DNA from: an uncultured Poribacteria bacterium
Lineage (GTDB): Bacteria; Poribacteria; WGA-4E; WGA-3G
DNA: 64,000 nt
Direction of reading: 5' to 3'
Assembly (NCBI GenBank): GCA_951813545.1
Contig: OX638352.1
Coordinates: 4,736,835-4,800,834, forward strand
A program made the position numbers and the translations under genes. Positions 4,159 to 55,822 of this stretch are shown piece by piece. Within the stretch, counting starts at the first letter, position 1. Every line of letters starts with the position of its first letter. Below the pieces are notes generated by a model that made no database searches, had not been told where the DNA came from, and saw only the letters and a list, made by a program, of their open reading frames with translations.

Positions 4159-5374
4159 TCCGCGACTCAGACAACCGCACCCGCCCCGTGAGGAGCTGCT
4201 GCATCATTCCCTGTTTGATGGAAATGGTTTTGTCCCGACGCTGCTCCAACGCCGCAATCTCGGCATCCATATCGGAAAGAATGCGAACGATAGCGTTCTG
4301 TTCTTTGACGCTCGGCATAAGGAAAGTAAAGTTTGCCATGTCCCGTCCATATAAGTGATAGACAGTTGTTCCTGATACAAGTTGCATCACCTGACTATGA
4401 TTTATCTTGATTACGTATGCGAGGAATGTTCCATTGAGGACATCAGCTGGAACGCGAATCACTAAGATATCGCCTCCAAGGATGACATTGGACATTGATA
4501 TACAACTTGCTGTTGCAAGACCATTAGGAGTTACATCCGATCCTGGCATCAGGACATCATTGGAGAGAGAAAGAAAAAACGTTCCTTCTCGATCAGTTCC
4601 ATGTAGAACTTTGGTGATACATTCGTCATAAGTTGTGAATAATTCTCCATAGTGGATACATCGCCTTTTCCCGTCAGGTGATAGGTCCGCTTTCGATAGA
4701 CCTGAGCCTTTAAAAAAAGATGAAATCTCGCCCAATCGCTTCACCTCCCACGCCCCGCTGAACCTAGGCAGGCGCGTCTGACCCGTCAGCAGTTGCTGCA
4801 TGGTGGCTTGCTTGATTGCCTGCTTCTTAGCGATGAGTGCGTCCAAGGCGTTGAGCAACCCATCCACATCCGACAATGCCTCGGCGATGGCGTGTTGTTC
4901 TGAAAGAGGAGGAAGAGGAATCTCAATATTCAGTAGGGTTCCCTTTGTAATTTCCTTAAATGTACTACCACTTGCAAGATCATTTAACTTCTCTTTTATA
5001 TATCTCAAATAGTAGGCGAGAAAGACATTTAATAGCGTCTCATGGCAAATAAAGTTAGCAAACCCTTGATTTGTCGCTATTGGAACGGTAGCGATTGCAG
5101 TTTCGCCAATTGTTGCTCGGCTAGTTAATAAAACTGTTCCCGCTGGTAGTAGTTTTGCAGCACTTTTACCTAATGCTTCTTCTGAAATATGTGTTGCTGT
5201 GTCATCAATGTACAAGGCGGAATCCAAAGCGGTAATGTCAGAAGGGATTGCCCAAGGAATATTGCCTCGAAAATATTTCACCACATCACGCTTTGGTGTT
5301 CCGCCTTTGGCAATCTCTGTTACCTCTCCTAATCTTACTACTTTCCAATGATCCTGTTTTGATTTTGCGCTCAT
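4136..5374 (-). CDS. hsdS: Type I restriction-modification specificity subunit (HsdS)
   Basis: 412 aa with two target-recognition-domain-like halves separated by conserved helical repeats (LLTGQTRLP / LLTGRVRL). It lies between hsdM and hsdR. Confidence 0.8.
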   Translation of the reverse strand: MSAKSKQDHWKVVRLGEVTEIAKGGTPKRDVVKYFRGNIPWAIPSDITALDSALYIDDTATHISEEALGKSAAKLLPAGTVLLTSRATIGETAIATVPIATNQGFANFICHETLLNVFLAYYLRYIKEKLNDLASGSTFKEITKGTLLNIEIPLPPLSEQHAIAEALSDVDGLLNALDALIAKKQAIKQATMQQLLTGQTRLPRFSGAWEVKRLGEISSFFKGSGLSKADLSPDGKRRCIHYGELFTTYDECITKVLHGTDREGTFFLSLSNDVLMPGSDVTPNGLATASCISMSNVILGGDILVIRVPADVLNGTFLAYVIKINHSQVMQLVSGTTVYHLYGRDMANFTFLMPSVKEQNAIVRILSDMDAEIAALEQRRDKTISIKQGMMQQLLTGRVRLSESRIDADDAD

Positions 5375-9318: not shown

Positions 9319-9435
9319 TATAGTAAAGCCCATAATTATCTATCCATCAACCAAAGGGCGAGGATACAATCCTCGCCAGCGGTGGTGAGGGTTTTTTGTT
9401 TCCCAAATGTTAACTTATTTTCAGACTTTACTATA
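9319..9435. mobile_element. MITE-like ~117-bp element, copy A
   Basis: 11-bp terminal inverted repeats (TATAGTAAAG ... CTTTACTATA). Internal perfect 9-bp GC hairpin GGCGAGGAT-ACA-ATCCTCGCC followed by a T-run. It is near-identical to the copy at 44346..44463. Confidence 0.45.
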
Positions 9436-9466: not shown

Positions 9467-10000
9467 CTACGGTGCTTCCGTGTAGTTCTCAATTGTTACC
9501 TTGTTCATTACATCACGTTCGCGTAGGGCATCTACTACATCCATTCCTTCAATAACCTTTCCGAATGTGGTATAGCTGCCGTTAAGATGTGCGTAAGGGC
9601 TTGGATCTGAACTGATACAGATATAAAACTGGCTTCCAGCGGAGTCAGGGTTCTGTGTCCGTGCCATAGCGACGACACCTTTTTCATGAGCTGGCATCTT
9701 TTCACGAAGGTCGGGGTCTTGGAATTCTCCCGGAATTGTCCATCCCGGTCCGCCTCTACCTGTCCCTTGTGGGTCGCCCCCTTGAATAACAAAACCGGGG
9801 ACATGCCGGTGAAAAATCACGCCATCATAATATCCGGTTTGGATCAACTGCGCGAAGTTTGCCACTGTGGCTGGAGCGGCTTCCGGATAAAGTTCAATAA
9901 TAATGTTTCCTTTTTCGGTTTCAATCGTTACATTGGGTAATTGATCAGTATTGCATGAGACAATCGCCGCGAAACACGCGCCTAATAAGCTAAATCGCAT
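9467..10000 (-). CDS. Peptidyl-prolyl cis-trans isomerase, cyclophilin type (PpiB-like), lipoprotein/secreted
   Basis: 177 aa. N-terminal signal with Cys (LLGACFAAIVSC). Cyclophilin motifs HRHVPGFVIQGGDP and FGKVIEGMDVV. Confidence 0.85.
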   Translation of the reverse strand: MRFSLLGACFAAIVSCNTDQLPNVTIETEKGNIIIELYPEAAPATVANFAQLIQTGYYDGVIFHRHVPGFVIQGGDPQGTGRGGPGWTIPGEFQDPDLREKMPAHEKGVVAMARTQNPDSAGSQFYICISSDPSPYAHLNGSYTTFGKVIEGMDVVDALRERDVMNKVTIENYTEAP

Positions 10001-21068: not shown

Positions 21069-22256
21069 ATGGCAAGCCCACTTGACGGTATAAAGGTTTT
21101 GGACCTCACGCGTGTTCTCGCCGGTCCGTATACAACCATGCTCCTTGGCGATCTTGGGGCAGAGGTCATCAAGGTTGAGCAGCCCGGTACGGGGGACGAA
21201 TCTCGCAATTTTGGTCCCTTTAAAAACGGGTTCAGTCTCTATTTCATGAGTGTGAATCGCGGAAAACGGAGCGTGACGCTCGACCTTAAAACCGAACGTG
21301 GGCATGCAATCTTCAAGCAGTTGTTGGAGCACGCTGACATCCTCGTCGAGAATTTCCGTCCGGGAACGATGAAAAATTTTGGCTTGGATTACGAGACACT
21401 GAAAACGGAGCATCCATCGCTCATTTATGCAGCGTGTTCCGGCTTTGGACAGACCGGTCCCTATGCACAGCAAGGCGCGTACGACATGATTATCCAAGGC
21501 ATGGGGGGTATCATCAGCATTACCGGTGAACCGGAAGGACCCCCAGTGCGTGTCGGCACCTCTATCAGCGACATCACCGCTGCCCTCTTCACCACGATCG
21601 GCATCCTCTCCGCACTGCATCATCGCAACCAAACAGGGAAGGGACAGTTTGTCGATGTCGCTATGTTGGACAGTCTTGTTGCTGTCTTGGAGAACGCCGT
21701 TGTCCGATATTTCGCTACTGGTGAGGCACCCAAACCCCTTGGTGCAAGACATCCAGCGATTACACCCTTTGAAGCGTTTGCATCTGCGGATGGACACGTT
21801 ATTATTGCGCTTGGAAATGATACACTCTGGGCAAAGTTCTGTGAACATGTTGGTCGGCAGGAACTCATCTCAGATGAACGGTTCCAGACGAACGCAGACC
21901 GAACAGAAAATCATAGTGATTTGTTTCCTATCCTCTCGGAGATTATGTCGCAACGGACGACTGATGATTGGATTGATTCGCTTGGAAATATCGGTGTGCC
22001 GTGCGGTCCTATCAATACGATGGATAAGGTCGTCAGTCACCCACAGGTGCAAGCACGCGAGATGATTACACGCGTTGCACACCACATCACAGGTGAAGTA
22101 GAGGTGCCGGGGGTGCCGATTAAACTTTCAGAAACGCCTGGAAACGTGGACGCACCTGCACCGAGTCTCGGTGAACATACAACTGAGATTCTAACCGATG
22201 TGTTAAAAATGGATCCAGATGAAGTGGAAAAGTTAAGGCGAGACGGAGTTGTTTAA
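21069..22256 (+). CDS. CoA-transferase family III (CaiB/BaiF) protein
   Basis: N-terminal LDGIKVLDLTRVLAGPYTTMLLGDLGAEVIKVE, typical of CaiB/BaiF; 395 aa. Confidence 0.85.
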   Translation: MASPLDGIKVLDLTRVLAGPYTTMLLGDLGAEVIKVEQPGTGDESRNFGPFKNGFSLYFMSVNRGKRSVTLDLKTERGHAIFKQLLEHADILVENFRPGTMKNFGLDYETLKTEHPSLIYAACSGFGQTGPYAQQGAYDMIIQGMGGIISITGEPEGPPVRVGTSISDITAALFTTIGILSALHHRNQTGKGQFVDVAMLDSLVAVLENAVVRYFATGEAPKPLGARHPAITPFEAFASADGHVIIALGNDTLWAKFCEHVGRQELISDERFQTNADRTENHSDLFPILSEIMSQRTTDDWIDSLGNIGVPCGPINTMDKVVSHPQVQAREMITRVAHHITGEVEVPGVPIKLSETPGNVDAPAPSLGEHTTEILTDVLKMDPDEVEKLRRDGVV

Positions 22257-22423
22257 TTATACCTTGCGGATAAGTATCGCTTGCTTGGGTATTGGTGTTC
22301 TACGTGTTCGAGTCGCCTGCGCCGTTTTTGCTGGCTTGGTTTAAGTTCATTCTTTACAAGAAACCTGCGTGTAATGGAGCGCAGTCCAGGTGCCCATAAA
22401 TTAAAAACCTGAAAGGAGTTCGC

Positions 22424-24691: not shown

Positions 24692-24813
24692 ACCAGGATT
24701 TACAAGATTCACAGATTTTCAGGATTACGTTGGTGTCCCGTTTTTTACTAAGAAGGCGGAAACGGATACCTACTGACTACTGATAACTGACTGCTGATAC
24801 CTATTAAAAAAAT

Positions 24814-26208: not shown

Positions 26209-27294
26209 CTAAATCTCAGGCACTCTCACCGCAATCTCTTTACCGGCTGCATGCGAACGGAAAATACCGTCCATAATCACGTTCGTGAGAAGCACACCCT
26301 CCGGCGGTATTGGGGACGGAGCATCCGCTTTAACCGCTTCACGGAACGCTGTCATCTGGGCTGCCCAGTTATCTTCTTGTGGGAATCCTGAGAACTGGAT
26401 CGTCGTCATCCCTTCCGGTGGGTTTGGTTCCGCTGTTAATCCCTCGGATTCGACAAACTTTTTGAGATCACCATCATACGCATCGGCATAGACAACCGGT
26501 CCATTCAATGAGAAACCCGCTTTCGTCCCAAGATGGAAGTTGCCACCGAGGGAGTCCTGATGCACTGCCCAAGAGATTTTGAACACCATCACACCACCAT
26601 TTTCAAACCGCACCCACGCCGCACCGAACTCCTCAACATCCATGATACCACGGAACCTCGGATCCTGCTGCGAGATGTAATCCTCAGTGATAGCGGAGAC
26701 ACGCACTGGTTTTGGATACCCCATCGCATACAGCGAAGCATGCATATTATAGACACCGATATCGACGGTTGCACCAGCACCTGCTGTCTTCTTATAGATG
26801 AACGTATGTCCTGGGTTCCCGCGCCGCCTGCACCCTGCAGATTCAGAGTAGTAGATATCGCCGAATAACCCGGCATCAAACGCCTTTCTTATGAATTGGA
26901 GTCTCGGGCTAAATGTCGGATTGAGACCGATTTGTAAGATTTTGCCCGATGCTTTCGCCGCTCGGGTCATCGCGGTCGCATCTGGAAGTGTCGCCGCCAT
27001 CGGTTTTTCACAGAGGACGTGTTTACCGGCGTTCAATGCTGCCACTGTCGGTCGCCGATGCCCCTGATTGTAAGTGCAGACACTCACTGCATCAAGTTCG
27101 TCCATTTCGAGCATCTTGTTGTAGCTTGAAAAAGCGTTCTGTTTCGGGACACCCCACTCTTTAGCGGCTTGATTTGCCTTACTTTTGATGATGTCACAGA
27201 CCGCAATGATCTCAAAACCGCCTACTTTCTCGTAGGTGCTCTGGTGCGCACGTGAAATGCCACCTGTACCAATAATACCAACCTTGACAGTCAT
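26209..27294 (-). CDS. Gfo/Idh/MocA-family NAD(P)-dependent oxidoreductase
   Basis: N-terminal Rossmann VGIIGTGGISRAH; 361 aa. Confidence 0.85.
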   Translation of the reverse strand: MTVKVGIIGTGGISRAHQSTYEKVGGFEIIAVCDIIKSKANQAAKEWGVPKQNAFSSYNKMLEMDELDAVSVCTYNQGHRRPTVAALNAGKHVLCEKPMAATLPDATAMTRAAKASGKILQIGLNPTFSPRLQFIRKAFDAGLFGDIYYSESAGCRRRGNPGHTFIYKKTAGAGATVDIGVYNMHASLYAMGYPKPVRVSAITEDYISQQDPRFRGIMDVEEFGAAWVRFENGGVMVFKISWAVHQDSLGGNFHLGTKAGFSLNGPVVYADAYDGDLKKFVESEGLTAEPNPPEGMTTIQFSGFPQEDNWAAQMTAFREAVKADAPSPIPPEGVLLTNVIMDGIFRSHAAGKEIAVRVPEI

Positions 27295-27342: not shown

Positions 27343-28428
27343 CTAAATTTCCGGCACTCTCACCGCAACCTCTTTTCCAGTCTCATGCGAACGGAATATG
27401 CCTTCCATAATTACATTTGTGAGAAGTACACCTTCGGGAGGTATCGGCGATGGTGCATCTGCCTTAACGGCTTCACGGAACGCGGTCATCTGTGCTTCCC
27501 AGACATTGACCGCTGGGAATCCTGAGAACCGGATCGTCGTCATTCCATCCGGCGGGTTCGGCTCTGCTGTCAATCCTTCCGATTTAACCAGTTTCTTGAG
27601 GTCATCCGTATAGGCATCGGCATAGACGACTGGTCCATCCAAGGAGATACCCATTTCTTTACCGAGACAGAAACTGGGACCGAGCGAATCCTGATGAATC
27701 GCCCAAGAGATTTTGAACACCATCACGCCACCGTCTTCAAACCGCACCCACGCGACACCGAACTCTTCAACATCCATAATCCCTCGAAATTGTGGATCTT
27801 GCTGCGAGATGTAGTCTTCAGTAATAGCAGAGACACGCACGGGTTTTGGATACCCCATCGCATACAGCGAGTTGTGCATATTGTAGACACCGATGTCTAC
27901 AATCGCACCAGCGCCCGCCGTCTTTTTGTAGATGAACGTGCGTCCCGGATTTCCACGCCGTCTGCCACCTGAAGACTCGGAGTAGTAGATGTCGCCGAGC
28001 AGTCCTTCATCGATTACCTTCTTCGCAAATTGGAGTCCCGGATTAAACGTGCTGTGGATACCGATCTGCAGGATTTTGCCCGACGCTTTTGCTGCCCGGA
28101 CCATCGCGGTCGCATCTGGGAGCGTCGCTGCCATCGGTTTCTCACAGAAGACATGTTTGCCAGCATTCAACGCTGCCACTGTCGGTCGCCGGTGTCCTTG
28201 GTTGTAAGTACAAACACTCACCGTGTCGATTTCGTCCATCTCAAGCATCTTGTTGTAACTGGTGAAGACGTGCTTTCTCGGTACACCCCACTGATCGGCG
28301 GCTTCGTTTGCCTTGCTTTTGATGATGTCGCAGACTGCAACGATCTCGAAACCGCCTACTGCCGTGTAAGATCGCTGGTGCGCCCGTGAGATACCGCCTG
28401 TACCCACAATACCGACTCGAATCGTCAT
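27343..28428 (-). CDS. Gfo/Idh/MocA-family oxidoreductase, tandem paralog
   Basis: 361 aa, co-linear with 26209..27294 and about 80-85% identical by eye. It carries the same motifs. Confidence 0.85.
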   Translation of the reverse strand: MTIRVGIVGTGGISRAHQRSYTAVGGFEIVAVCDIIKSKANEAADQWGVPRKHVFTSYNKMLEMDEIDTVSVCTYNQGHRRPTVAALNAGKHVFCEKPMAATLPDATAMVRAAKASGKILQIGIHSTFNPGLQFAKKVIDEGLLGDIYYSESSGGRRRGNPGRTFIYKKTAGAGAIVDIGVYNMHNSLYAMGYPKPVRVSAITEDYISQQDPQFRGIMDVEEFGVAWVRFEDGGVMVFKISWAIHQDSLGPSFCLGKEMGISLDGPVVYADAYTDDLKKLVKSEGLTAEPNPPDGMTTIRFSGFPAVNVWEAQMTAFREAVKADAPSPIPPEGVLLTNVIMEGIFRSHETGKEVAVRVPEI

Positions 28429-37124: not shown

Positions 37125-37436
37125 TCTGACCGTAAAGCCAAAACATTCCGCTCTTATGTTCTCGCCTTTAAGGTGCGAATATAAGAGCGTTTTTTATGGA
37201 TGAATAGCATCTGCCTATAGTGCTCAAGAATGGCAAATCAAGTCGGGAATCGGAGTTCCCTCCTACGGGTGTGTAAATATTTTGGCAGCGTTCCCTTATA
37301 GAGCGGTTTTACGCCGACAGCCCCTCGTCAACGTACATAGCACTCCGCTGGAGTGCTATGTAAACAAACCGGTCCTATCAAAAAAATTAAGGAAACCGTG
37401 ACAAAAACTTTACACACTTCCCTCCTACAGAGGTTC

Positions 37437-37465
37437 TTGACAAGCCGCCGCAAATTCTGTATAAT
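37437..37465 (+). promoter_or_regulatory. Consensus sigma70 promoter for the 37490 operon
   Basis: Perfect TTGACA (37437..37442), a 17-bp spacer, then perfect TATAAT (37460..37465). GGAGG follows at 37476..37480, then a TTG start at 37490. Confidence 0.55.
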
Positions 37466-37489: not shown

Positions 37490-37963
37490 TTGAAACAGAT
37501 TATCACACACGCAGACCCAGACCTCGATGCTATTGTCAGCGCATGGATCGCTCAAGATTTTCTTTTCCGACAGACCGCATCAGAGGTACTGTTTGTGAGT
37601 CGCAAAGTACCCGAAAGGCTTATGTTACATGCCGACTGTGTGGTAGATGTTGGGAACACATATTCTCCTGAGAATTACCGGTTCGATCACAAGCCTCCGG
37701 CATTTCGGAATAGAAATGGCACCTGTGCAACTCGGCTTATCTGGGAATATCTGATCAATATTGGTGTTGATGTCGCGTATCTTGAGCCTTTGGTACAGAT
37801 AACATATCAAGGGGATACACACCGGAATTCGGAGGCACTTAAACAGAGCCGAATCGATGGACCACATGCCGAATTAGCCAGACTCAAAGCAGAATATAAA
37901 GAGACGACAGAGGTCTATCGAGAGATGGTTCTCTGGCTGAGGAGTTATACAAAAAACTTATGA
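37490..37963 (+). CDS. Small hypothetical protein with DHH-phosphoesterase-like N-terminal motifs
   Basis: 157 aa. HADPDLDAIVSAW resembles DHH motif I. VVDVG and FDHK are possible motifs II/III. It is far shorter than canonical DHH proteins. TTG start with a GGAGG RBS. Its stop overlaps the next gene start. Confidence 0.4.
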   Translation: MKQIITHADPDLDAIVSAWIAQDFLFRQTASEVLFVSRKVPERLMLHADCVVDVGNTYSPENYRFDHKPPAFRNRNGTCATRLIWEYLINIGVDVAYLEPLVQITYQGDTHRNSEALKQSRIDGPHAELARLKAEYKETTEVYREMVLWLRSYTKNL

Positions 37964-39270
37964 AGCAGCTTACATGTTTATTTATTGCCCTATTTGCTAT
38001 AGCAGTCGTGCAGGCGCAATTCGCAAGTGCCGATGAATGGCACCAGTGGCGTGGTGAAAACCGGGAAGGCGTTTGGAACGAAACAGGTATCATCGAAAAA
38101 TTTGAAGGTGAGGAGATTCCACTTCGGTGGCGCGTTCCTATCGGAAGTGGCTATAGCGGACCGAGTGTTGCTGATGGACGCGTGTACGTCACAGACAGGC
38201 TCACAAAGCCAAAACAGGTTGAACGCGTTCACTGCTTCGATTGGGAAACAGGCGAATCACTCTGGTCTTACACCTACGATTGTGTCTATAAAATAGACTA
38301 TACAGCGGGACCGCGTGCAAATGTTACCATTCATGATGGACTCGCTTACGCTTTAGGGTCGATGGGACATCTACACTGTTTCGATGCCGTTACTGGAGAC
38401 ATCATCTGGAAAAGAGATCTCAATGCCGAATATAACATTAATATGCCGATTTGGGGCATCGCGTGCGCACCTATTGTTGAGGGTGAAAACCTGATCGTTC
38501 AAATCGGCGGAAAGCCGAACGCTTGTATCGTTGCATTTGATCGGAAAACGGGTGAGGAGAAGTGGAAAGCGTTAGACGACAACGCCTCTTATTCGGCACC
38601 GATTGTCATTACGCAAGCGGGTGAACGCGTCTTAATTTGCTGGACGGGTGCTAACATCACCGGACTTAATCCGCAAACTGGAAAAGTACACTGGCTTTAT
38701 CCGTTTCCACCGGAAAGTTTTGAGATCGCTATTGCGACACCTATTTTCAATCAGAATGAATTGTTTGTCACAGAATTCCGTCAAGGATCTCTTCTCCTGA
38801 AGCTGCCACCGGATAAGTTGGCTGCAGAACTCGGCTGGCACCGTAAGGGAAAAAACGAACAGAATACCGACGCCCTTCAGACGACAATGGCGACACCTGT
38901 CCGTTTGGGGGATTACATCTATGGGGTGGATAGTTATGGAGAACTCCGCTGTTTAGATGCAGGAAACGGGGATCGGATTTGGGAAGACCTCACCGCTGTG
39001 CGGAAAGCACGCTGGAGCAATATCCATTTCGTCAGTCATCCAGTGGCATCGGATAACAGAGTATGGATGTTTAACGAACATGGCGAACTTCTCATCACGG
39101 AACTCTCTCCCGACGGACTAAATATTATCAGTCGCGCCAAACTAATCGAACCGACGCGCGACCAATTGAACCGAAGGGGCGGCGTTACGTGGGCGCATCC
39201 TGCGTTTGCCTATAAGCACGTCTTCGCACGAAACGACAAAGAACTCGTTTGTGCCAATTTAGAAAAATAG
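37960..39270 (+). CDS. PQQ-like beta-propeller repeat protein (BamB-like fold), secreted
   Basis: Signal peptide. WHQWRGENREGVWNE N-terminus and repeated hydrophobic-W/G-x-D propeller blades. Confidence 0.7.
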   Translation: MKQLTCLFIALFAIAVVQAQFASADEWHQWRGENREGVWNETGIIEKFEGEEIPLRWRVPIGSGYSGPSVADGRVYVTDRLTKPKQVERVHCFDWETGESLWSYTYDCVYKIDYTAGPRANVTIHDGLAYALGSMGHLHCFDAVTGDIIWKRDLNAEYNINMPIWGIACAPIVEGENLIVQIGGKPNACIVAFDRKTGEEKWKALDDNASYSAPIVITQAGERVLICWTGANITGLNPQTGKVHWLYPFPPESFEIAIATPIFNQNELFVTEFRQGSLLLKLPPDKLAAELGWHRKGKNEQNTDALQTTMATPVRLGDYIYGVDSYGELRCLDAGNGDRIWEDLTAVRKARWSNIHFVSHPVASDNRVWMFNEHGELLITELSPDGLNIISRAKLIEPTRDQLNRRGGVTWAHPAFAYKHVFARNDKELVCANLEK

Positions 39271-39888
39271 TGGGTTTCTTCTTTTTAGCCAAAGATCGAG
39301 AGCCTGAAACGAAGTGAAAGGGTTTTTGCTTGGGGGTTTCTTCAGATCTACGTAAAAGAATGTTAAATCCCAAACTATACTAACCGAACCACAAGGAATA
39401 ATTAAGAATAGCGGGTTTCTTTTTTTTACCCAAAGATCGTGAGCCTGAAACGAAGTGGAGGGCGGATCTACGTAAAAGAACGTTAAATCCCAAACCATAC
39501 TAACCGAACCGCAAGGAACAATTAAGAATAGCGGGTTTCTTCTTTTTAGCCAAAGATCGCGAGCCTGAAACGAAGTGGAGGGCGGATCTACGTAAAAGAA
39601 CGTTAAATCCCAAACCATACTAACCGAACCGCAAGGAACAATTAAGAATAGCGGGTTTCTTCTTTTTAGCCAAAGATCGCGAGCCTGAAACGAAGTGGAG
39701 GGCGGATCTACGTAAAAGAACGTTAAATCCCAAACCATACTAACCGAACCGCAAGGAATAATTAAGAATAGCGGGTTTCTTCTTTTTAGCCAAAGATCGC
39801 GAGCCTGAAACGAAGTGGAGGGCGGATCTACGTAAAAGAACGTTAAATCCCAAACTATACTAACCGAACCGCAAGGAATAATTAAAAT
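39269..39888. repeat. Tandem repeat, 5 units of ~120 bp (first unit 141 bp), filling the whole PQQ-M16 intergenic region
   Basis: Unit AGCGGGTTTCTTCTTTTTAGCCAAAGATCGCGAGCCTGAAACGAAGTGGAGGGCGGATCTACGTAAAAGAACGTTAAATCCCAAACCATACTAACCGAACCGCAAGGAACAATTAAGAAT. Unit boundaries at 39410, 39530, 39650 and 39770. Units 3 and 4 are identical. The array ends 1 nt before the ATG at 39889. Confidence 0.9.
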
Positions 39889-42882
39889 ATGGAAACAACT
39901 CGGACACCAGAGGTAAACTTACGTCCCGGCGAACAACTTCACGGCTTTGAGGTGAAAGCCGTTACACCGATCGACGAATTGCGAGCAGTGACAATTGAAT
40001 TGGCACACCAACATAGCGGTGCCCGCCTGCTACATCTCTATACAAACGATACGGAAAATCTCTTCTCCATTAATTTCCCGACCCCGCCATCAGACGATAC
40101 CGGCGTACCCCATATTCTTGAACATGCTGTTTTGGCAGGCTCACACAAATTTCCGGTTAAAGAGCCCTTCTTTGAAATGATTAAAATGAGCATGGCAACA
40201 TTTATTAACGCCATGACAAGTGCCGATTTTACATGCTATCCGGTATCAAGCAACGTAAAAAAAGACCTTTTCAACTTGGCAGAAGTTTACTTTGACGCGG
40301 TCTTCCATCCACTACTGACCGAAAATACTTTCAAGCGTGAAGGACATCATCTCGCACCCGTCGATCCGGATGACCCTACAGGCGATTTAAAGATAACGGG
40401 TATCGTCTATAATGAGATGAAAGGCGCATTCTCAGATCCTGAAGCTCGGTTATATCGATCAATGACATGTCAACTCCTTCCAGATACGCTTTACGCATGT
40501 GAATCCGGCGGCGATCCAGATGCCATTCCGGATTTGACCTACGCGCAGCTCAAAGGATTTCATGAAACCTATTATCACCCAAGCAACGGCTATTTCGTTC
40601 TGTACGGGGACATTCCGACGAGCGACTATCTCACGTTCCTCGCCGATAAGTTAGATAAAATCCCAAAGAATGCTGCGAGTGCCTCTCTACGACCGCTAAG
40701 CCCGGAGGTCACACACCAACCGAAGTGGGATGCGCCACGGGCTGTAACGGATACCTACCCTGTCGGCGCAGATGAAGCACTCACAGAAAAAACATATATG
40801 ATGCTCAGTTGGTACATCGGAGAAGCGACCAAACCGGAAGCAGTTGTTTTAGGACGCATTTTGAGCCTTATACTGCTTGGCAATGAAGCCGCACCGCTCC
40901 GTAAAGCGATAATCGATTCCAAACTCGGTGCAGACCTCATCTATTCCGGTGCCAGTTCCATCGGACCCGCAGCTACTTTTCACGTTTCCCTCAAAGGGAG
41001 CGAAGTCGATCGCGTTGAAGCCTTCACACAACTCGTCACCGATACCCTAACAGCGATTGCGAATTCAGAGATTAATAACGAAAAGGTGGAAGCAGCGTTC
41101 CAACAAGCGACATACTATTACCAAGAAGTCGCTTCAATGTTCCCGCTCCGCATGCTCTACCGTGTCATTGAAGGCTGGATATATGAAAAAGATTCGGACA
41201 CCTTCCTAAAGATGGGAAAAACGCTGACTGATGTTCGTCAGCAGTGGCTGGAAAATCCATCAATTTTCAACGACTTCATCCGCGAGCATCTCATTGAGAA
41301 TCCACATCGTCTGACAAGTGTGTTGTCTCCTGATCAGGACATGCAGGCGAAAATGGATGCTGAACTCGCCGAACGGATGAAAGAGACACGGACACAACTC
41401 ACTGATGAAGAGGTACGGCAAATCGCCGCTGATGCTGCGGAACTCGAACGCCTCAACGGCGTCCCCAATTCGCCGGAAGCACTCGCAAATCTGCCACAAC
41501 TCCAAGTCAGCGATCTTCCCGATAAACCGAAACATTTTCCGAGAACAGTCGAAAATGTCGGTGGTCGGGATCTGCTCCGCAGCGATGTTTTTGCCAATGG
41601 TGTTAACTACCTTGTGCTCAACTTCAATTTACACGGGTTACCACAGCACCTCTGGACCTATCTACCCAGATATGCTGACGCTATTAGCAAACTCGGTGCC
41701 GCTGATATGAGTTATGAAGAGATGGCACAGCGGACATCTGCCGTCACCGGTGGTATTGGATGCTCACCGTGGTTTTCTACACACACACTCGATGCCAATC
41801 GTTCCATGCAGAGTATATCCTTTCACCTCAAAGCACTCGATGGGAAAATGGATGCCGCGCTCGATGTCTTGCACGATTTACTGTTTGCTGTGAACCCACG
41901 CGATACGGAACGCCTCCGGGACGTACTGGTTCAAGCGGTTGCAGAATATCAGACAGAAATGATCCACGACGGCTCAAGTACTGCGGTTCATCACGCTTCA
42001 CGTGGACTTTCGTCGAATGCGCATCTCGCCGAAATCATCTATGGTCTACCCCAACTCCGCAACAGCGAAACGCTCTTCAACGATTTTGACGAACTTCATA
42101 CCGACCTTATGGGTCATATAGAAGGAGTTCGCGATTTCCTGCTAACCCGTGAACGGGTGACCGCCAGCTTCACCGGTTCGGATACCGCTTTTGAAACGAC
42201 GCGAACCAAACTCGGTGAGTGGCTTGACGCGATGCGGAACGAGCCTGTTATTTCAGAACCGATTGCGTTCCAGCAGTTTGATACACCACCGAGAGAGGGA
42301 TTAGCCGGTCCCATTCAGATTGCGCATTGTGCGCATGTAATGCCGGCACCGCACTACTCCGATCCGGATTCAACGCTGCTGACGATCGGGGCGCATCTCA
42401 TTCGACTGGATTACATACTGAGTGAAATCCGCTTTAAAGGCAACGCTTATGGTGCCAGATTCAGCTATAGTCCTTATGACGCAGTCCTGTGTCAATCCTC
42501 GTATCGCGACCCACACGTCGCACGCACGATCAACGTCTTCGAGCAAACCGTTGATTACGTTAAACAGGTGGAATGGACACAAACAGACATAGACCGCGCG
42601 ATTATTGCTACGGCAAAAGATGGTGAGAAACCGATGCGTCCAGGTTTAGCTGCGAGAGAGGCACTGAGTCAACATCTTGTGGGGCAGACGCGCGAGATGC
42701 GAGAGGAACGCTACGCGCAACTCCGACGTGCCACCCCTGCTGAGGTGAAACGCGCGCTCCTTCAACTTTTAGAGGGAAACCGAGATAAAGCCGCGGTGTG
42801 TGCCGTTTCCAGTCGTGAAAAACTGGAAGCCGCAAACAGTGAATTAGCACAACCGCTTGTCATTGAGGATATTTTATCCTAA
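39889..42882 (+). CDS. M16C-family zinc metallopeptidase (PreP/pitrilysin-like)
   Basis: 997 aa. Inverted zinc motif HILEHAVLAGS (HxxEH) and downstream NEMKG glutamate. Length is typical of M16C. Confidence 0.8.
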   Translation: METTRTPEVNLRPGEQLHGFEVKAVTPIDELRAVTIELAHQHSGARLLHLYTNDTENLFSINFPTPPSDDTGVPHILEHAVLAGSHKFPVKEPFFEMIKMSMATFINAMTSADFTCYPVSSNVKKDLFNLAEVYFDAVFHPLLTENTFKREGHHLAPVDPDDPTGDLKITGIVYNEMKGAFSDPEARLYRSMTCQLLPDTLYACESGGDPDAIPDLTYAQLKGFHETYYHPSNGYFVLYGDIPTSDYLTFLADKLDKIPKNAASASLRPLSPEVTHQPKWDAPRAVTDTYPVGADEALTEKTYMMLSWYIGEATKPEAVVLGRILSLILLGNEAAPLRKAIIDSKLGADLIYSGASSIGPAATFHVSLKGSEVDRVEAFTQLVTDTLTAIANSEINNEKVEAAFQQATYYYQEVASMFPLRMLYRVIEGWIYEKDSDTFLKMGKTLTDVRQQWLENPSIFNDFIREHLIENPHRLTSVLSPDQDMQAKMDAELAERMKETRTQLTDEEVRQIAADAAELERLNGVPNSPEALANLPQLQVSDLPDKPKHFPRTVENVGGRDLLRSDVFANGVNYLVLNFNLHGLPQHLWTYLPRYADAISKLGAADMSYEEMAQRTSAVTGGIGCSPWFSTHTLDANRSMQSISFHLKALDGKMDAALDVLHDLLFAVNPRDTERLRDVLVQAVAEYQTEMIHDGSSTAVHHASRGLSSNAHLAEIIYGLPQLRNSETLFNDFDELHTDLMGHIEGVRDFLLTRERVTASFTGSDTAFETTRTKLGEWLDAMRNEPVISEPIAFQQFDTPPREGLAGPIQIAHCAHVMPAPHYSDPDSTLLTIGAHLIRLDYILSEIRFKGNAYGARFSYSPYDAVLCQSSYRDPHVARTINVFEQTVDYVKQVEWTQTDIDRAIIATAKDGEKPMRPGLAAREALSQHLVGQTREMREERYAQLRRATPAEVKRALLQLLEGNRDKAAVCAVSSREKLEAANSELAQPLVIEDILS

Positions 42883-42991: not shown

Positions 42992-44344
42992 ATGATAAAA
43001 AAAATCGCAATTTTGACAATCTGTATCTTTGCTTTAGTGGCGGTTGCAACAATGGCATCACAGCCGGTCGGTTTTGAGAAGAACTGGCATCATTGGCGCG
43101 GACCGCATGCTACGGGTGCCGCAGCCGAAGCCAATCCGCCTACTACATGGAGCGAAACCGAGAACGTCCGCTGGAAAGTGGCTATCCCCGGCACGGGACA
43201 TGCCGCTCCAATTATCTGGGAGGACAAGATCTTCATCCAGACAGCAGTTAAGGGTGAAGCTGCCAAAGCGGAAGCCGAAGAATCAGATGATGATAATCCG
43301 TTCGGTGGCTTCTTTCAACAAAGGCGTGGGCGAGATGCAATTGAAAACTCTTATAAGTTTGACCTTCTCGCTATCAATCGAAATGACGGCAGTATTCTCT
43401 GGCAGAAGACACTGCGAGAGATAAACCCACATGAAGGCACACATCAAGATGCTACGTTCGCTTCAAACTCGCCGGTCACCGACGGTGAGCACATCTATGC
43501 CTATTTTGGTTCACGCGGGCTTTACTGTGTAGATATGATGGGCAATGTGAAGTGGGAAAAGGACATCGGCACGATGTATAAACGGAATACCTTCGGTGAA
43601 GGGAGTTCGCCTGTTCTTCACGGAAACACGCTTGTTATTGTACAGGACCATGAAGGTGATTCCTTTATCACGGCTCTTGACAAACGGACAGGCGATGTCT
43701 TGTGGAAGACCGCTCGCGATGAAAGAACGACTTGGTTTTCACCTATCGTTGTTGAACAGAATGGAAAAGCGCAGGTAATTACGACAGGCACCAATCGTGT
43801 TCGTAGTTACGATTTGGAGACTGGCGAACTTTTATGGGATGGCGACGGATTGACTGCGAATAGTATTCCTTCCCCTGTTGCTGCTGATGGGTTCGTTTAC
43901 CTGATGAGTGGCTTCCGGGGCAGTGAATTGCTGGCAGTTCAACTTGAAAAGGCGATGGGTGATATTACCGATTCCAGTGCCGTTGTCTGGGAACATAATC
44001 GTGATACACCCTATGTTCCTTCACCCCTCCTCTATGGGAATACACTCTATTTCTTGAAAAGCAATGATGGTATCCTCACTGCCTTCAATGTTGAGACAGG
44101 ACAAGCATATTATGGACCAGTACGGTTACAAGGCGTTTCTGGTGTCTACGCTTCAATTGTTGGGGCATCAGATCGCATCTACATCGCCGGACGGAACGGG
44201 ACGATCAACGTTCTCCAACACGGTCCCGAATTTAGTGTCATAGCGGAAAACACTCTGGATGATAGTTTCAACGCATCGCCCGCGATTGTCGGTTCAGAGT
44301 TATATCTCCGTGGCGGTCAGTATCTTTACTGCATTGCAGAGTAA
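42992..44344 (+). CDS. PQQ-like beta-propeller repeat protein, paralog
   Basis: Signal peptide. NWHHWRGPHATGAA N-terminus. Architecture parallels 37960..39270. Confidence 0.7.
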   Translation: MIKKIAILTICIFALVAVATMASQPVGFEKNWHHWRGPHATGAAAEANPPTTWSETENVRWKVAIPGTGHAAPIIWEDKIFIQTAVKGEAAKAEAEESDDDNPFGGFFQQRRGRDAIENSYKFDLLAINRNDGSILWQKTLREINPHEGTHQDATFASNSPVTDGEHIYAYFGSRGLYCVDMMGNVKWEKDIGTMYKRNTFGEGSSPVLHGNTLVIVQDHEGDSFITALDKRTGDVLWKTARDERTTWFSPIVVEQNGKAQVITTGTNRVRSYDLETGELLWDGDGLTANSIPSPVAADGFVYLMSGFRGSELLAVQLEKAMGDITDSSAVVWEHNRDTPYVPSPLLYGNTLYFLKSNDGILTAFNVETGQAYYGPVRLQGVSGVYASIVGASDRIYIAGRNGTINVLQHGPEFSVIAENTLDDSFNASPAIVGSELYLRGGQYLYCIAE

Positions 44345-44345
44345 T

Positions 44346-44463
44346 TATAGTAAAACCTACAATTAATTAGACATTGTAGAAGGGCGAGGATACAATCCTC
44401 GCCAGCGGTGGTGCGGTGTTTTGTGTTTTCCAAAGTGCCCTCTTATTTTCGGGTTTTACTATA
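44346..44463. mobile_element. MITE-like ~118-bp element, copy B
   Basis: Perfect 11-bp TIRs TATAGTAAAAC (44346..44356) and GTTTTACTATA (44453..44463). Same internal hairpin GGCGAGGATACAATCCTCGCC and following AGCGGTGGTG..GTTTT tract as copy A. It is inserted 1 nt after the stop codon at 44342..44344. Confidence 0.45.
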
Positions 44464-44469
44464 GTTATC

Positions 44470-44556
44470 AGTCGTCAGTTGTCAGTTATCAGTTACAAGA
44501 GAACTTTGTTAAACGAAAATCTCTTAACTGAAGACTGACAACTGACAGCCAATTAT
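44470..44556. repeat. Long imperfect inverted repeat (ACTGAC-type motifs) between convergent genes
   Basis: Arms TCAGTCGTCAGTTGTCAGTTATCAGTTA and TAACTGAAGACTGACAACTGACAG around a ~35-nt loop. A related CTGACTACTGATAACTGACTGCTGATA tract lies at 24773..24800. Confidence 0.4.
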
Positions 44557-47092: not shown

Positions 47093-47299
47093 TGGTGCCT
47101 CCTATTTAAAGCCTTTTTTATACCGATATATACTCGCAACGTGTGATTACGAGAAAATTAAGAACGTCATAATGAATATTGCTGTTACTATTTTAACTTG
47201 CACTTATTTATATTTTCCACTATAATTTCGGTCAATGCCATTTAGTTCACACCCAGCCATTCAGTTATCAGTTTTCTACCCGTTTTGTGTCGGGTGTCG

Positions 47300-47580
47300 T
47301 GGTTTGGGGATCCCTTCTACAGAAGGGATCGGGAATTGGAGTTCCTTCCTACAGAAGAGTCGGGAATCGGAGTTCCCTCCTACAGAAGAGTCGGGAATCG
47401 GAGTTCCCTCCTACAGAAGGGATCGGGAATTGGAGTTCCTTCCTACAGAAGAGTCGGGAATCGGAGTTCCCTCCTACAGAAGAGTCGGGAATCGGAGTTC
47501 CTTCCTACAGAAGAGTCGGGAATCGGAGTTCCCTCCTACAGAAGAGTCGGGAATCGGAGTTCCCTCCTACAGAAGAGATG
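47300..47580. repeat. Tandem array of about nine 31-bp repeats in a divergent promoter region
   Basis: Unit GGGAATCGGAGTTCCCTCCTACAGAAGAGTC, with variants GGGAATTGGAGTTCCTTCCTACAGAAGGGATC. Each unit has an internal dyad GGGAA-N6-TTCCC. A solo copy lies at 37241..37266. Confidence 0.85.
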
Positions 47581-52386: not shown

Positions 52387-52455
52387 CTGGAAGTCGGGCT
52401 TCGGAAATCCTTTCTACAGGAAAACTGAATCCTCCGAAGCAGCAGACAAAAACAC

Positions 52456-54802: not shown

Positions 54803-55822
54803 ATGAGTGATTGGCAGTGGAAAAATCAAATAAAAAAGCGTGATGGTTATGTTTGTCGTCGATGTGGATTTGACAAAAATTTGCATGTCCATCACATTTT
54901 GCCTAAAGACAAATATCCTTACGAACAGGATTATCCTCCGAACGGACTTACGCTTTGTGGAAATTGTCATTCACTCCTGAAGGACAAAGAAGAGCAAACT
55001 GATCTCCGAGGGTTCTTCCCAGATGACCAAGAAATTGATGAACAACTAAAATATTTAAGCGAAAATGTGTCAATGAATGAAAGTCAGCGGGTACTTCTTG
55101 AAGGGAAAGAGGCACAAAGAATAAATAGGTCGGTGAAGTGTGAATTTCGATTAGGAAAGAAAAGATCCAAGCAGAAACAGTATGAATTAGCAATTTTTGC
55201 TTATGATAATGTTATCCATTTAAAATCAGATTTCGTTGAAGCGTACTATTATCGGGGAAAAGCAAAATATGAACTGAAACGGTATAAAGCTGCAATTTAT
55301 GATTATGACAACGCACTCCGGCTAAGACCTGATAATGTCAGTGTTTACTTCAATCGGGGTTTGGCGAAGTACGCCCTTGGACAATATAAGTCTGTGATTA
55401 CCGACTACAACATGGTCATCCGATTCACTCCGGATAATGTCAGTGCTTACTTCAATCGGGGTTTGGCGAAGTACAAATTAGGGCGACATGATACTGCGAT
55501 TATTGACTTTGACGAGGCGATTTCCCTCAAACCTGATTTTGCAAAAGCCTACTACTATCGCGGAAAAGCGAAGTATAAACAAGAATCACATGACGCTGCT
55601 ATTACTGACTTTGACGAAGTGATTCGTCTCAACACAGATTTTGCTGAAGCCTACCACTATCGTGGACTAGGGAAGTGCAAATTGGGGCAACATGATGCTG
55701 CTATAACCGACTATGATACCGCTAACAGACTCAACCCTGAAATCTGTTATTATGTCTTGCTTCAGAAGATATTCGGTTTGGATAGCTCTGTTATAAGGGA
55801 ACTTGCAGGCAATCCCAGTTAA
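54803..55822 (+). CDS. HNH endonuclease domain fused to about seven TPR repeats
   Basis: N-terminal CRRCGFDKNLHVHHILPKD...NGLTLCGNCH (HNH with a zinc ribbon). Repeated AYYYRGKAKYELKRYKAAIYDYDNALRLRPD-type TPR units. Confidence 0.65.
   Translation: MSDWQWKNQIKKRDGYVCRRCGFDKNLHVHHILPKDKYPYEQDYPPNGLTLCGNCHSLLKDKEEQTDLRGFFPDDQEIDEQLKYLSENVSMNESQRVLLEGKEAQRINRSVKCEFRLGKKRSKQKQYELAIFAYDNVIHLKSDFVEAYYYRGKAKYELKRYKAAIYDYDNALRLRPDNVSVYFNRGLAKYALGQYKSVITDYNMVIRFTPDNVSAYFNRGLAKYKLGRHDTAIIDFDEAISLKPDFAKAYYYRGKAKYKQESHDAAITDFDEVIRLNTDFAEAYHYRGLGKCKLGQHDAAITDYDTANRLNPEICYYVLLQKIFGLDSSVIRELAGNPS

Follow-up and report, generated by a model that had tools for sequence, protein, structure and literature searches.

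The window considered here is a stretch of 64,000 nt from an uncultured Poribacteria bacterium (assembly GCA_951813545.1, contig OX638352.1, positions 4,736,835 to 4,800,834 of the forward strand). In it, a PQQ_2 beta-propeller gene is followed by a gene for an M16C/PreP-like peptidase, and the gap between the two is taken up by a tandem array of non-coding units of about 120 nt. This array, and the dispersed leader element of which its units are copies, are the subject of the present analysis. The coordinates of the features are collected in Table 1, where relatives are given by our L labels.

Counted from the PQQ stop codon, the 618-bp gap (39271-39888) consists of five head-to-tail units of 141, 120, 120, 120 and 117 nt. 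Tandem Repeats Finder (TRF) reports a single array (39345-39889; period 120; 4.6 copies; 97% matches; score 1020), and half-unit patterns give 4-5 matches each in the window against 0 expected from shuffles. A preliminary description of this DNA, made from the letters alone, had the array filling the whole gap and ending 1 nt before the ATG. Indeed, PQQ_2 ends at 39270 and the peptidase starts at 39889, and the unit boundaries proposed there are a valid phase of the five-unit array. The 141-bp first unit of that description is also real, since it holds a 21-nt extra segment. Units 3 and 4, which it took to be identical, are actually one base apart (C at 39639, T at 39759). Unit 1 differs from the other units at 8-11 positions.

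The sequences at the unit borders indicate what was duplicated. The internal junctions read ..AAGGAAYAATTAAGAAT|AGCGGGTTTC.., the left part being a leader end that includes the AT of the start codon. The same leader end is found in the terminal sequence of L002, ..AATTAAAGA|ATGG. The right part starts with the AG of the PQQ stop codon, the PQQ end there being ..GAAAAAT|AGCGGG; the AG of the PQQ_2 TAG is thus the left breakpoint of the repeat unit. The breakpoints are marked by ..AAGAAT|AGCGGG.., where the first two bases of ATG are fused to the last two of TAG, so that the duplicated segment spans the stop codon to the start codon, with ..AAT as microhomology. Units 1-4 carry Shine-Dalgarno (SD) sequences identical to that of unit 5, but these are followed by AUA-G where unit 5 has AUG, as read from the junction codons. 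Judged by its sequence, the terminal unit supplies the ribosome-binding site (RBS) of the peptidase, and its earlier designation as the peptidase 5' leader is borne out.

The number of units differs among close strains. L089/L091 (an ENA scaffold from another sample, without Ns in the region) has four units in the order long-short-short-short, 497 nt in all; its PQQ protein is identical to that of the window and its peptidase gene is 0.77% different. Four short units (476 nt) are present in L090, a 50.9-kb contig from a different project with the exact PQQ2 protein and a peptidase gene 0.30% different. L001/L002, with a peptidase gene 2.4% different, have one unit, on short-read contigs in which an array may have collapsed. 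Units 1, 2 and 5 of the window show 2, 1 and 3 differences from units 1, 2 and 4 of L089 and are orthologous to them by position. Only the interior differs, with two near-identical units in the window versus one in L089. Divergence between units within the array reaches 9%, while L089 and L090 are 0.7-1.8% different from the window at third codon positions. The multi-unit state is therefore older than these strains, and its composition is turning over fast.

Two traits of variable-number tandem repeats (VNTRs) resembling the mycobacterial interspersed repetitive units (MIRUs) are seen here: head-to-tail intergenic units of ~40-150 nt (five of 117-141 nt, TRF score 1020) and a copy number that varies among close strains (5, 4, 4 and 1 at 0.3-2.4% peptidase divergence). 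The pattern across strains is that of a true VNTR. The preliminary description had proposed to compare copy number among relatives, and the close strains give 1, 4, 4 and 5 units.

The same junction was followed in other species through a peptidase scan of the GTDB species representatives, which yielded 80 Poribacteria loci where the spacer from PQQ stop to peptidase start was measured and its sequence read. The leader is absent from most relatives. In the majority of the measurable ones (type B) the spacer is 23-25 nt long, ends ..CACGGAGGCAAAATA and is followed by a TTG start, and the PQQ gene is 3 codons longer. A minority (type A) has a PQQ 3' end like that of the window (..TGTGCCAATTTAGAAAAATAG), an ATG start and the leader, present at these junctions as 0.5, 1, 1.4 or 2 units. 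The 21-nt segment of the long form recurs in L016, L034 and unit 1 of L089; its presence in the full L016 unit and in the L034 unit indicates that the long form is probably older. The partial units of L016 and L028 are 84% alike and closer to each other than either is to its own full unit. They are therefore orthologous, and the duplicate predates the split of these two species. Copies cluster within genomes in L035 (95%) and in the window (93-100%). Tandem duplication at the peptidase junction thus occurred in several lineages.

In a neighbour-joining tree of the peptidase, type A occupies four separate places, each with type-B sisters. One PQQ_2 3' end, ..GCCAATTTAGAAAAATAG, is common to all leader-bearing junctions. 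Since all type-A junctions have this same modified PQQ end, the simplest reading of this single-gene tree is a single origin of type A, probably followed by recombinational spread or loss.

Other insertions have been seen at this junction. In L035, a ~120-nt insertion (9686-9805), which holds a T-run and a GCCCCGTAGGGGC hairpin, splits the first leader unit. A GC hairpin element resembling repetitive extragenic palindromes (REP-like; ..CTGGCGAGG-N-CCTCGCCAGCGG..) lies at 9354-9396 and 44380-44422 of the window (93% identity). Related hairpins fill enlarged type-B PQQ-peptidase spacers (96-143 nt) in L021, L022 and L029, which indicates that the same junction accepted another dispersed element in other species.

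The unit is also found outside the array, as non-coding family copies of 106-148 nt, which normally sit right before other genes. When JGI metagenomes were scanned for exact patterns, the first half-unit was detected on a 229-kb contig, immediately ahead of an isochorismatase-like gene with a GTG start. Further full-length copies were obtained with profiles built from known copies, using nhmmer and a covariance model, R1 (cmsearch). Loci other than the junction are of four kinds (L033/L035, L080, L086 and window 22252-22357), and all but the window copy are in other Poribacteria genomes. The L033 and L035 copies lie 20-35 nt downstream of a strong sigma-70-type promoter, TTGACA-18-TATACT (11/12 positions). 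The L080 copy precedes a gene for a THUMP-type methyltransferase; in five other genomes, the sequence before the orthologues of this gene is unrelated. The solo copy in the window is antisense and lies between two plus-strand genes, with no gene to lead.

Members of the family combine a tract of pyrimidines, a small hairpin and an unstructured stretch rich in A and C with a fixed region for ribosome binding. The latter, CCGCAAGGAAUAAUUAAAA, ends all gene-proximal copies and is directly followed by the start codon; its invariant columns read CCGCAAGG(A/U)A(U/A)AAUUAAAA. The genes downstream (the peptidase, the 157-aa protein, the isochorismatase-like protein and the THUMP methyltransferase) are unrelated, and their orthologues in sister species do without the element. 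The element is thus best described, on sequence grounds, as a sporadically distributed 5' leader module. A scan of IMG/VR for it gave 0 matches. A 27-nt exact pattern from the second half of the unit also gave 0 matches against the GTDB species representatives, indicating that the version found in the species of the window is not among them at that stringency. Two scans of these representatives (185,579 species) found no extra copies at the stringency used.

The unit shows little sign of RNA structure. Folding of single units, on both strands, is no better than that of shuffles (z about 0), and RNAalifold finds essentially no consensus structure in two alignments (-0.7 to -2.1 kcal/mol). Rfam gives no match at the gathering score in the window, and with E up to 10 the array has only chance-level matches (E 3.6 and 7.8). 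The preliminary description had proposed folding and covariation analysis of one unit; what this leaves is a 4-bp hairpin, P1, at the same offset in every unit, in which nt 32-35 (GCCU) pair with nt 49-52 (RGGC). On alignment A4, 98% of cells are paired and 2 pairs have changes on both sides. On alignment A5, which was fitted to the model, 97.5% are paired, 3 of the 4 pairs are double-changed and 0/500 shuffles reach the observed value. The exchanges are C-G/U-A and U-A/U.G/C-G. A helix scan over all column pairs is not significant against a column-shuffle null (13/200 shuffles as good). Because A5 was fitted to the model and this null is not significant, P1, the sole structural signal and one with compensatory changes, is treated as suggestive only. 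The P1 loop of L033, L035 and L036 encloses a further, nested hairpin, which varies in length. The SD and P1 are intact in 13/13 units of three arrays, where two substitutions in the stem (C-G to U.G and U.G to U-A) keep pairing. The SDs are predicted to be mostly unpaired (P 0.68-0.93). In the 3' half of the unit A and C are abundant and G is scarce, with 12 C versus 5 G in 40 nt.

Several regulatory devices were considered for the units and rejected. An array of promoters or terminators (attenuators) inside them finds no such sites: 39000-40100 contains 0 sigma-70 promoter-like and 0 intrinsic-terminator-like sites, the two classes covered. Masking of the SD by the 5' pyrimidine tract amounts to low-complexity complementarity no stronger than in shuffles, and the SDs themselves are predicted unpaired. 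A sponge for CsrA was rejected since GGA density is at background (13 in 618 nt, or 21 per kb, versus 17.8 per kb in the window) and no CsrA gene was found in the DNA examined. The only GGA that is invariant across the family is that in the SD site; upstream GGAs are not conserved.

The array lies within what seems to be an operon. A sigma-70-type promoter precedes a 157-aa gene that overlaps the PQQ gene, and a second PQQ_2 beta-propeller gene (PQQ2) follows the peptidase; relatives keep this gene order, including the 157-aa gene and PQQ2. Given the shared strand and tight spacing, this promoter may drive the whole unit, from the 157-aa gene through PQQ, array and peptidase to PQQ2. Since a promoter was found before the 157-aa gene and none in 39000-40100, the array is most simply taken as an untranslated intercistronic part of the operon mRNA. 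The peptidase has full-length homologues in Candidatus Poribacteria at 75-99% identity, and the names of database proteins assign the window to this phylum. The window peptidase and protein P0004 have no exact match in the protein collection. In L004, a 340-aa gene with an RRXRR domain (PF14239; 6258-7280) is found between peptidase and PQQ2, which is not the case in the window or in the other relatives examined.

Table 1. Features of the array, the leader family and the surrounding genes
Feature	Sequence	Coordinates	Strand	Remarks
Promoter TTGACA-17-TATAAT, sigma-70 type	window	37437-37465	+	12/12 consensus positions; 24 nt upstream of first operon gene
157-aa gene	window	37490-37963	+	TTG start; first operon gene; 4-nt overlap with PQQ gene; from ORF list
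PQQ_2 beta-propeller gene, 436 aa	window	37960-39270	+	Pfam PF13360, E 8e-29
Unit 1, long form	window	39271-39411	+	141 nt; 21-nt extra segment GTTTTTGCTTGGGGGTTTCTT 3' of hairpin
Unit 2, short form	window	39412-39531	+	120 nt; 1 base off unit 2 of strain L089
Unit 3	window	39532-39651	+	120 nt; differs from unit 4 solely at 39639/39759
Unit 4	window	39652-39771	+	120 nt; units 3 and 4 sit where L089 has one interior unit
Unit 5, terminal leader	window	39772-39888	+	117 nt; adjoins peptidase ATG; 3 bases off last L089 unit
P1 hairpin of unit 5	window	39803-39823	+	GCCU / GGGC around GAAACGAAGUGGA
SD of terminal unit, AAGGAA	window	39873-39878	+	10 nt 5' of ATG; invariant columns across element family
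M16C/PreP-like peptidase gene, 997 aa	window	39889-42882	+	Pfam M16C_assoc, Peptidase_M16, Peptidase_M16_C, PreP_C
PQQ2, second PQQ_2 beta-propeller gene	window	42992-44344	+	3' of peptidase, same putative unit
159-aa repetitive ORF (open reading frame)	window	39259-39738	-	Pfam match exactly at threshold, no stretch passing alone
Degenerate solo copy of leader	window	22252-22357	-	nhmmer E 8e-6; cmsearch 69 bits, E 1.4e-10 (copy was in R1 training set)
Second tandem array	window	47298-47580		31-nt unit AGTCGGGAATCGGAGTTCCCTCCTACAGAAG with GGGAA..TTCCC hairpin; 8.5 copies
Leader copy	L033	3192-3330		directly upstream of 157-aa operon-heading gene
Leader copy	L035	7721-7861		directly upstream of 157-aa operon-heading gene
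Leader copy	L080	16-121		upstream of THUMP-type methyltransferase gene
Type-A junction	L008			half a unit
Type-A junction	L034, L036, L037, L085, L040, L080			about one unit each
Type-A junction	L016, L028			0.4 + 1 unit
Type-A junction	L035			two units; first split by ~120-nt insertion

These data are probably best explained by a hypervariable, MIRU-like array of a dispersed 5' leader, which changes by unequal recombination and whose last unit gives the peptidase its RBS. The repeat unit is a complete intercistronic leader; it starts at base 2 of the PQQ stop codon and ends at base 2 of the peptidase start codon. In one allele, this leader would have taken the place of the ancestral 23-25 nt spacer, and illegitimate recombination at ..AAT, a short stretch homologous between stop and start codons, would then have duplicated it. 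Since then, the array may have expanded and contracted through unequal recombination between units or through slippage at replication. Its transcript is probably part of the operon mRNA starting at the 37437-37465 promoter, where only the last unit, which precedes an AUG, would act as the peptidase translation start and the four internal units would be exposed RBSs without a start codon. As a guess, the effect could be an uncoupling from PQQ translation, together with copy-number-dependent polarity or decoy ribosome binding. The preliminary description had offered an amplified untranslated region (UTR) or attenuator, an array of regulator-binding sites and an unstable minisatellite as options. 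The amplified UTR and the minisatellite hold together, while an attenuator or regulator-binding array finds no support from terminators or promoters, folding, Rfam or GGA enrichment.

Some observations weigh against this explanation. The antisense solo copy cannot be a leader, which agrees better with a repeat dispersed at the DNA level than with a leader that is purely functional. The one unit of L001/L002 was seen on short-read contigs and may be what is left of a collapsed array, and the exact count of five in the window is taken from the assembly only. Co-transcription, like any effect on the expression of the peptidase or PQQ2, is something that we infer. Finally, arrays that outlast strain splits and the old partial duplicate of L016/L028 could mean that there is selection for several copies in place of neutral minisatellite behaviour.

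One rival explanation is a selected expression rheostat or contingency locus, in which leader copy number is kept variable and tunes the output of peptidase and PQQ2. Its possible routes include start-less RBSs acting as decoy or standby sites, additional untranslated C-rich RNA for Rho loading, and sites for an RNA-binding regulator or small RNA. We regard it as unlikely, though deserving attention: the arrays predate strain splits yet differ between strains 0.3% apart, duplicated leaders recur or persist in other species, the SD and P1 are intact in every unit of the three arrays, with stem substitutions that keep pairing, the SDs are predicted accessible, C is frequent and G rare in the 3' half of the unit, and a second array (31-nt unit) before another gene is also variable in copy number. 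However, GGA is not enriched, no fold is significant, the orthologous genes of sister species do without the element, and ordinary minisatellite dynamics explain all of the observations. Somewhat more doubtful is a wider proposal, namely that a portable translation-initiation leader, a non-coding cassette with a ribosome-binding region of its own, spreads between genes and, by recombination, between Poribacteria lineages, its copy number forming a heritable, rapidly mutating expression dial for peptidase and PQQ2 (a contingency locus of whole 5' UTRs). That each unit is one sensing domain of a tandem structured cis-regulatory RNA, riboswitch-like or protein-binding, seems very improbable. The position of the element in 5' UTRs downstream of promoters, the compensatory changes in the 4-bp hairpin and the nested hairpin of variable length in the P1 loop of three relatives would suit it, but not the lack of an Rfam match even at E up to 10, the null results of RNAalifold, single-unit folding and column shuffles, or the associated genes, which have no common functional theme and orthologues without the element. 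A miniature mobile element of the MITE (miniature inverted-repeat transposable element) or REP type, inserted repeatedly so that the array is made of nested or tandem insertions, is improbable as well. The sporadic distribution with empty orthologous sites in sister species, the antisense copy and the patchiness of the junction type on the peptidase tree are consistent with such an element. Against it, a repeat scan in and around the array found no inverted repeats, hence no terminal inverted repeats, no target-site duplication is visible, and duplication from stop to start codon explains the unit junctions exactly. The PQQ 3' end common to all leader-bearing junctions argues for a single origin, and neither IMG/VR nor, at the stringency used, the GTDB representatives provided additional copies.

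Two further explanations retain hardly any probability. One is an assembly artefact, in which a single unit was over-expanded. Exact repeats at offset 120 reach 198 nt, which a typical 150-nt short read is too short to span, and this makes the region hard for short reads. However, the units can be told apart by the long form and by unit-specific single-nucleotide polymorphisms, and two independent assemblies of the same species, from other samples, carry 4-unit arrays whose first, second and last units match by position. The doubt raised in the preliminary description is thereby answered, and an artefact appears to be ruled out as the origin of the tandem structure. The other is a protein-coding repeat, either the 159-aa minus-strand ORF or small plus-strand peptides. 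One minus-strand frame is indeed fully open across the array, both 120 and 21 nt being multiples of 3. In L035, a unit-unit junction keeps its ATG and opens a 36-codon ORF (MDFFFFAKDRKPETKW...; 9882-9992), which runs through the second unit to end 9 nt short of the peptidase ATG; this MIRU-like coupling was seen in no other species. Yet the minus-strand frame is interrupted or shifted in L016, L028, L034, L037, L086 and others. The plus strand, closed in every unit according to the preliminary description, has stops in all three frames of the array (18, 11 and 9) and an ATA codon at the internal junctions, and its sole long frame is disrupted by 1-nt indels in unit 3 of L089 and unit 2 of L090. 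There is no credible Pfam match. As neither frame is conserved in related copies or strains, nothing in the array is coding, and the 159-aa ORF is an artefact of the 120-nt period, the explanation already given for it.

The favoured explanation, a minisatellite of leaders, has its closest parallel in the MIRU-VNTR loci reportedly described by Supply and colleagues in 1997. Like MIRU-VNTRs, the Poribacteria units are minisatellite-like, of tens to ~100 nt, lie within operons in the orientation of the flanking genes, with array ends touching stop and start codons, and vary in copy number between close strains; taking the Poribacteria genomes together, they also occur at several intergenic sites. 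Unlike in MIRUs, whose small ORFs reach over the adjacent stop and start codons and so couple translation, every plus-strand frame is closed and the junction codon is ATA; furthermore, the unit is a complete leader with its own SD, is longer (120-141 nt) and belongs to a different host phylum. We class the array among the interspersed intergenic minisatellites and not as a MIRU, because coupling ORFs, the defining feature of MIRUs, are missing.

Other families offer partial likenesses. ERIC/IRU, the Correia elements of Neisseria and the pneumococcal BOX are characterised by inverted repeats at their ends or by long palindromic stems, and the number of boxB copies in BOX varies. Like these, the present element is dispersed, non-coding, ~100-150 nt long, sporadic across strains and species and located in untranslated mRNA, and it shares with BOX a variable number of tandem subunits. 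Unlike them, it lacks inverted repeats and long stems, and its 3' end is a fixed RBS region placed exactly at the start codon. Tandem riboswitches and leaders likewise repeat cis-acting RNA units in one 5' UTR; in the Poribacteria element no conserved aptamer-like structure, Rfam family or consistent gene association was found, and the array copies are 91-99% identical and strain-variable instead of forming a fixed architecture. Repeated GGA, one in the SD (CAAGGAA) and one at the hairpin loop, recalls CsrB/RsmZ-type RNAs and CsrA-bound leaders, but GGA density is at background and the upstream GGAs are not conserved in the family.

The window holds other repeats. The second tandem array, which ends ~25 nt short of the start codon (ATG) of a 95-aa gene resembling pterin-4a-carbinolamine dehydratase, also varies in copy number, with 8.5 copies in the window versus 7.5 in L090 (0.3% different). 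Solo copies of its 31-nt unit are dispersed at 37241-37266 and 52392-52417, and directly next to the -35 of the operon promoter there is a partial match, TTCCCTCCTACAGAGG (about 37418-37433). Intergenic heptamer repeats (AGTTATC / GTCAGTT / CTACTGA), in part arranged as an inverted pair, occur at 44463-44547 and 24694-24799, in the regions that follow PQQ2 and precede the THUMP-type gene; in L086, a similar TTGTCAGTTATCGG (about 4662-4685, minus strand) is found shortly before the leader copy. A 300-nt direct repeat (26209-26508 and 27343-27642; 80% identity, 1134 nt apart) probably reflects adjacent paralogous genes, and a repeat of 102-nt period at 55466-55716 (73% identity, 2.5 copies) is probably a coding TPR-like repeat.

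A literature search on Poribacteria intergenic repeats found nothing relevant. The family would be the first interspersed non-coding repeat family described for this uncultured phylum of sponge symbionts, and it comes with at least two hypervariable loci. For assemblers and annotators there is a warning: short-read metagenome-assembled genomes may collapse the array, and gene callers yield a spurious 159-aa ORF from it. In metagenomes, strains could be told apart by the 120-nt and 31-nt arrays, much as mycobacteria are by MIRU-VNTR typing. Moreover, the Poribacteria provide a natural series of 0, 0.5, 1, 1.4, 2, 4 and 5 leader copies before one conserved gene, which suits the study of how intercistronic spacer length and decoy RBSs affect operon expression.

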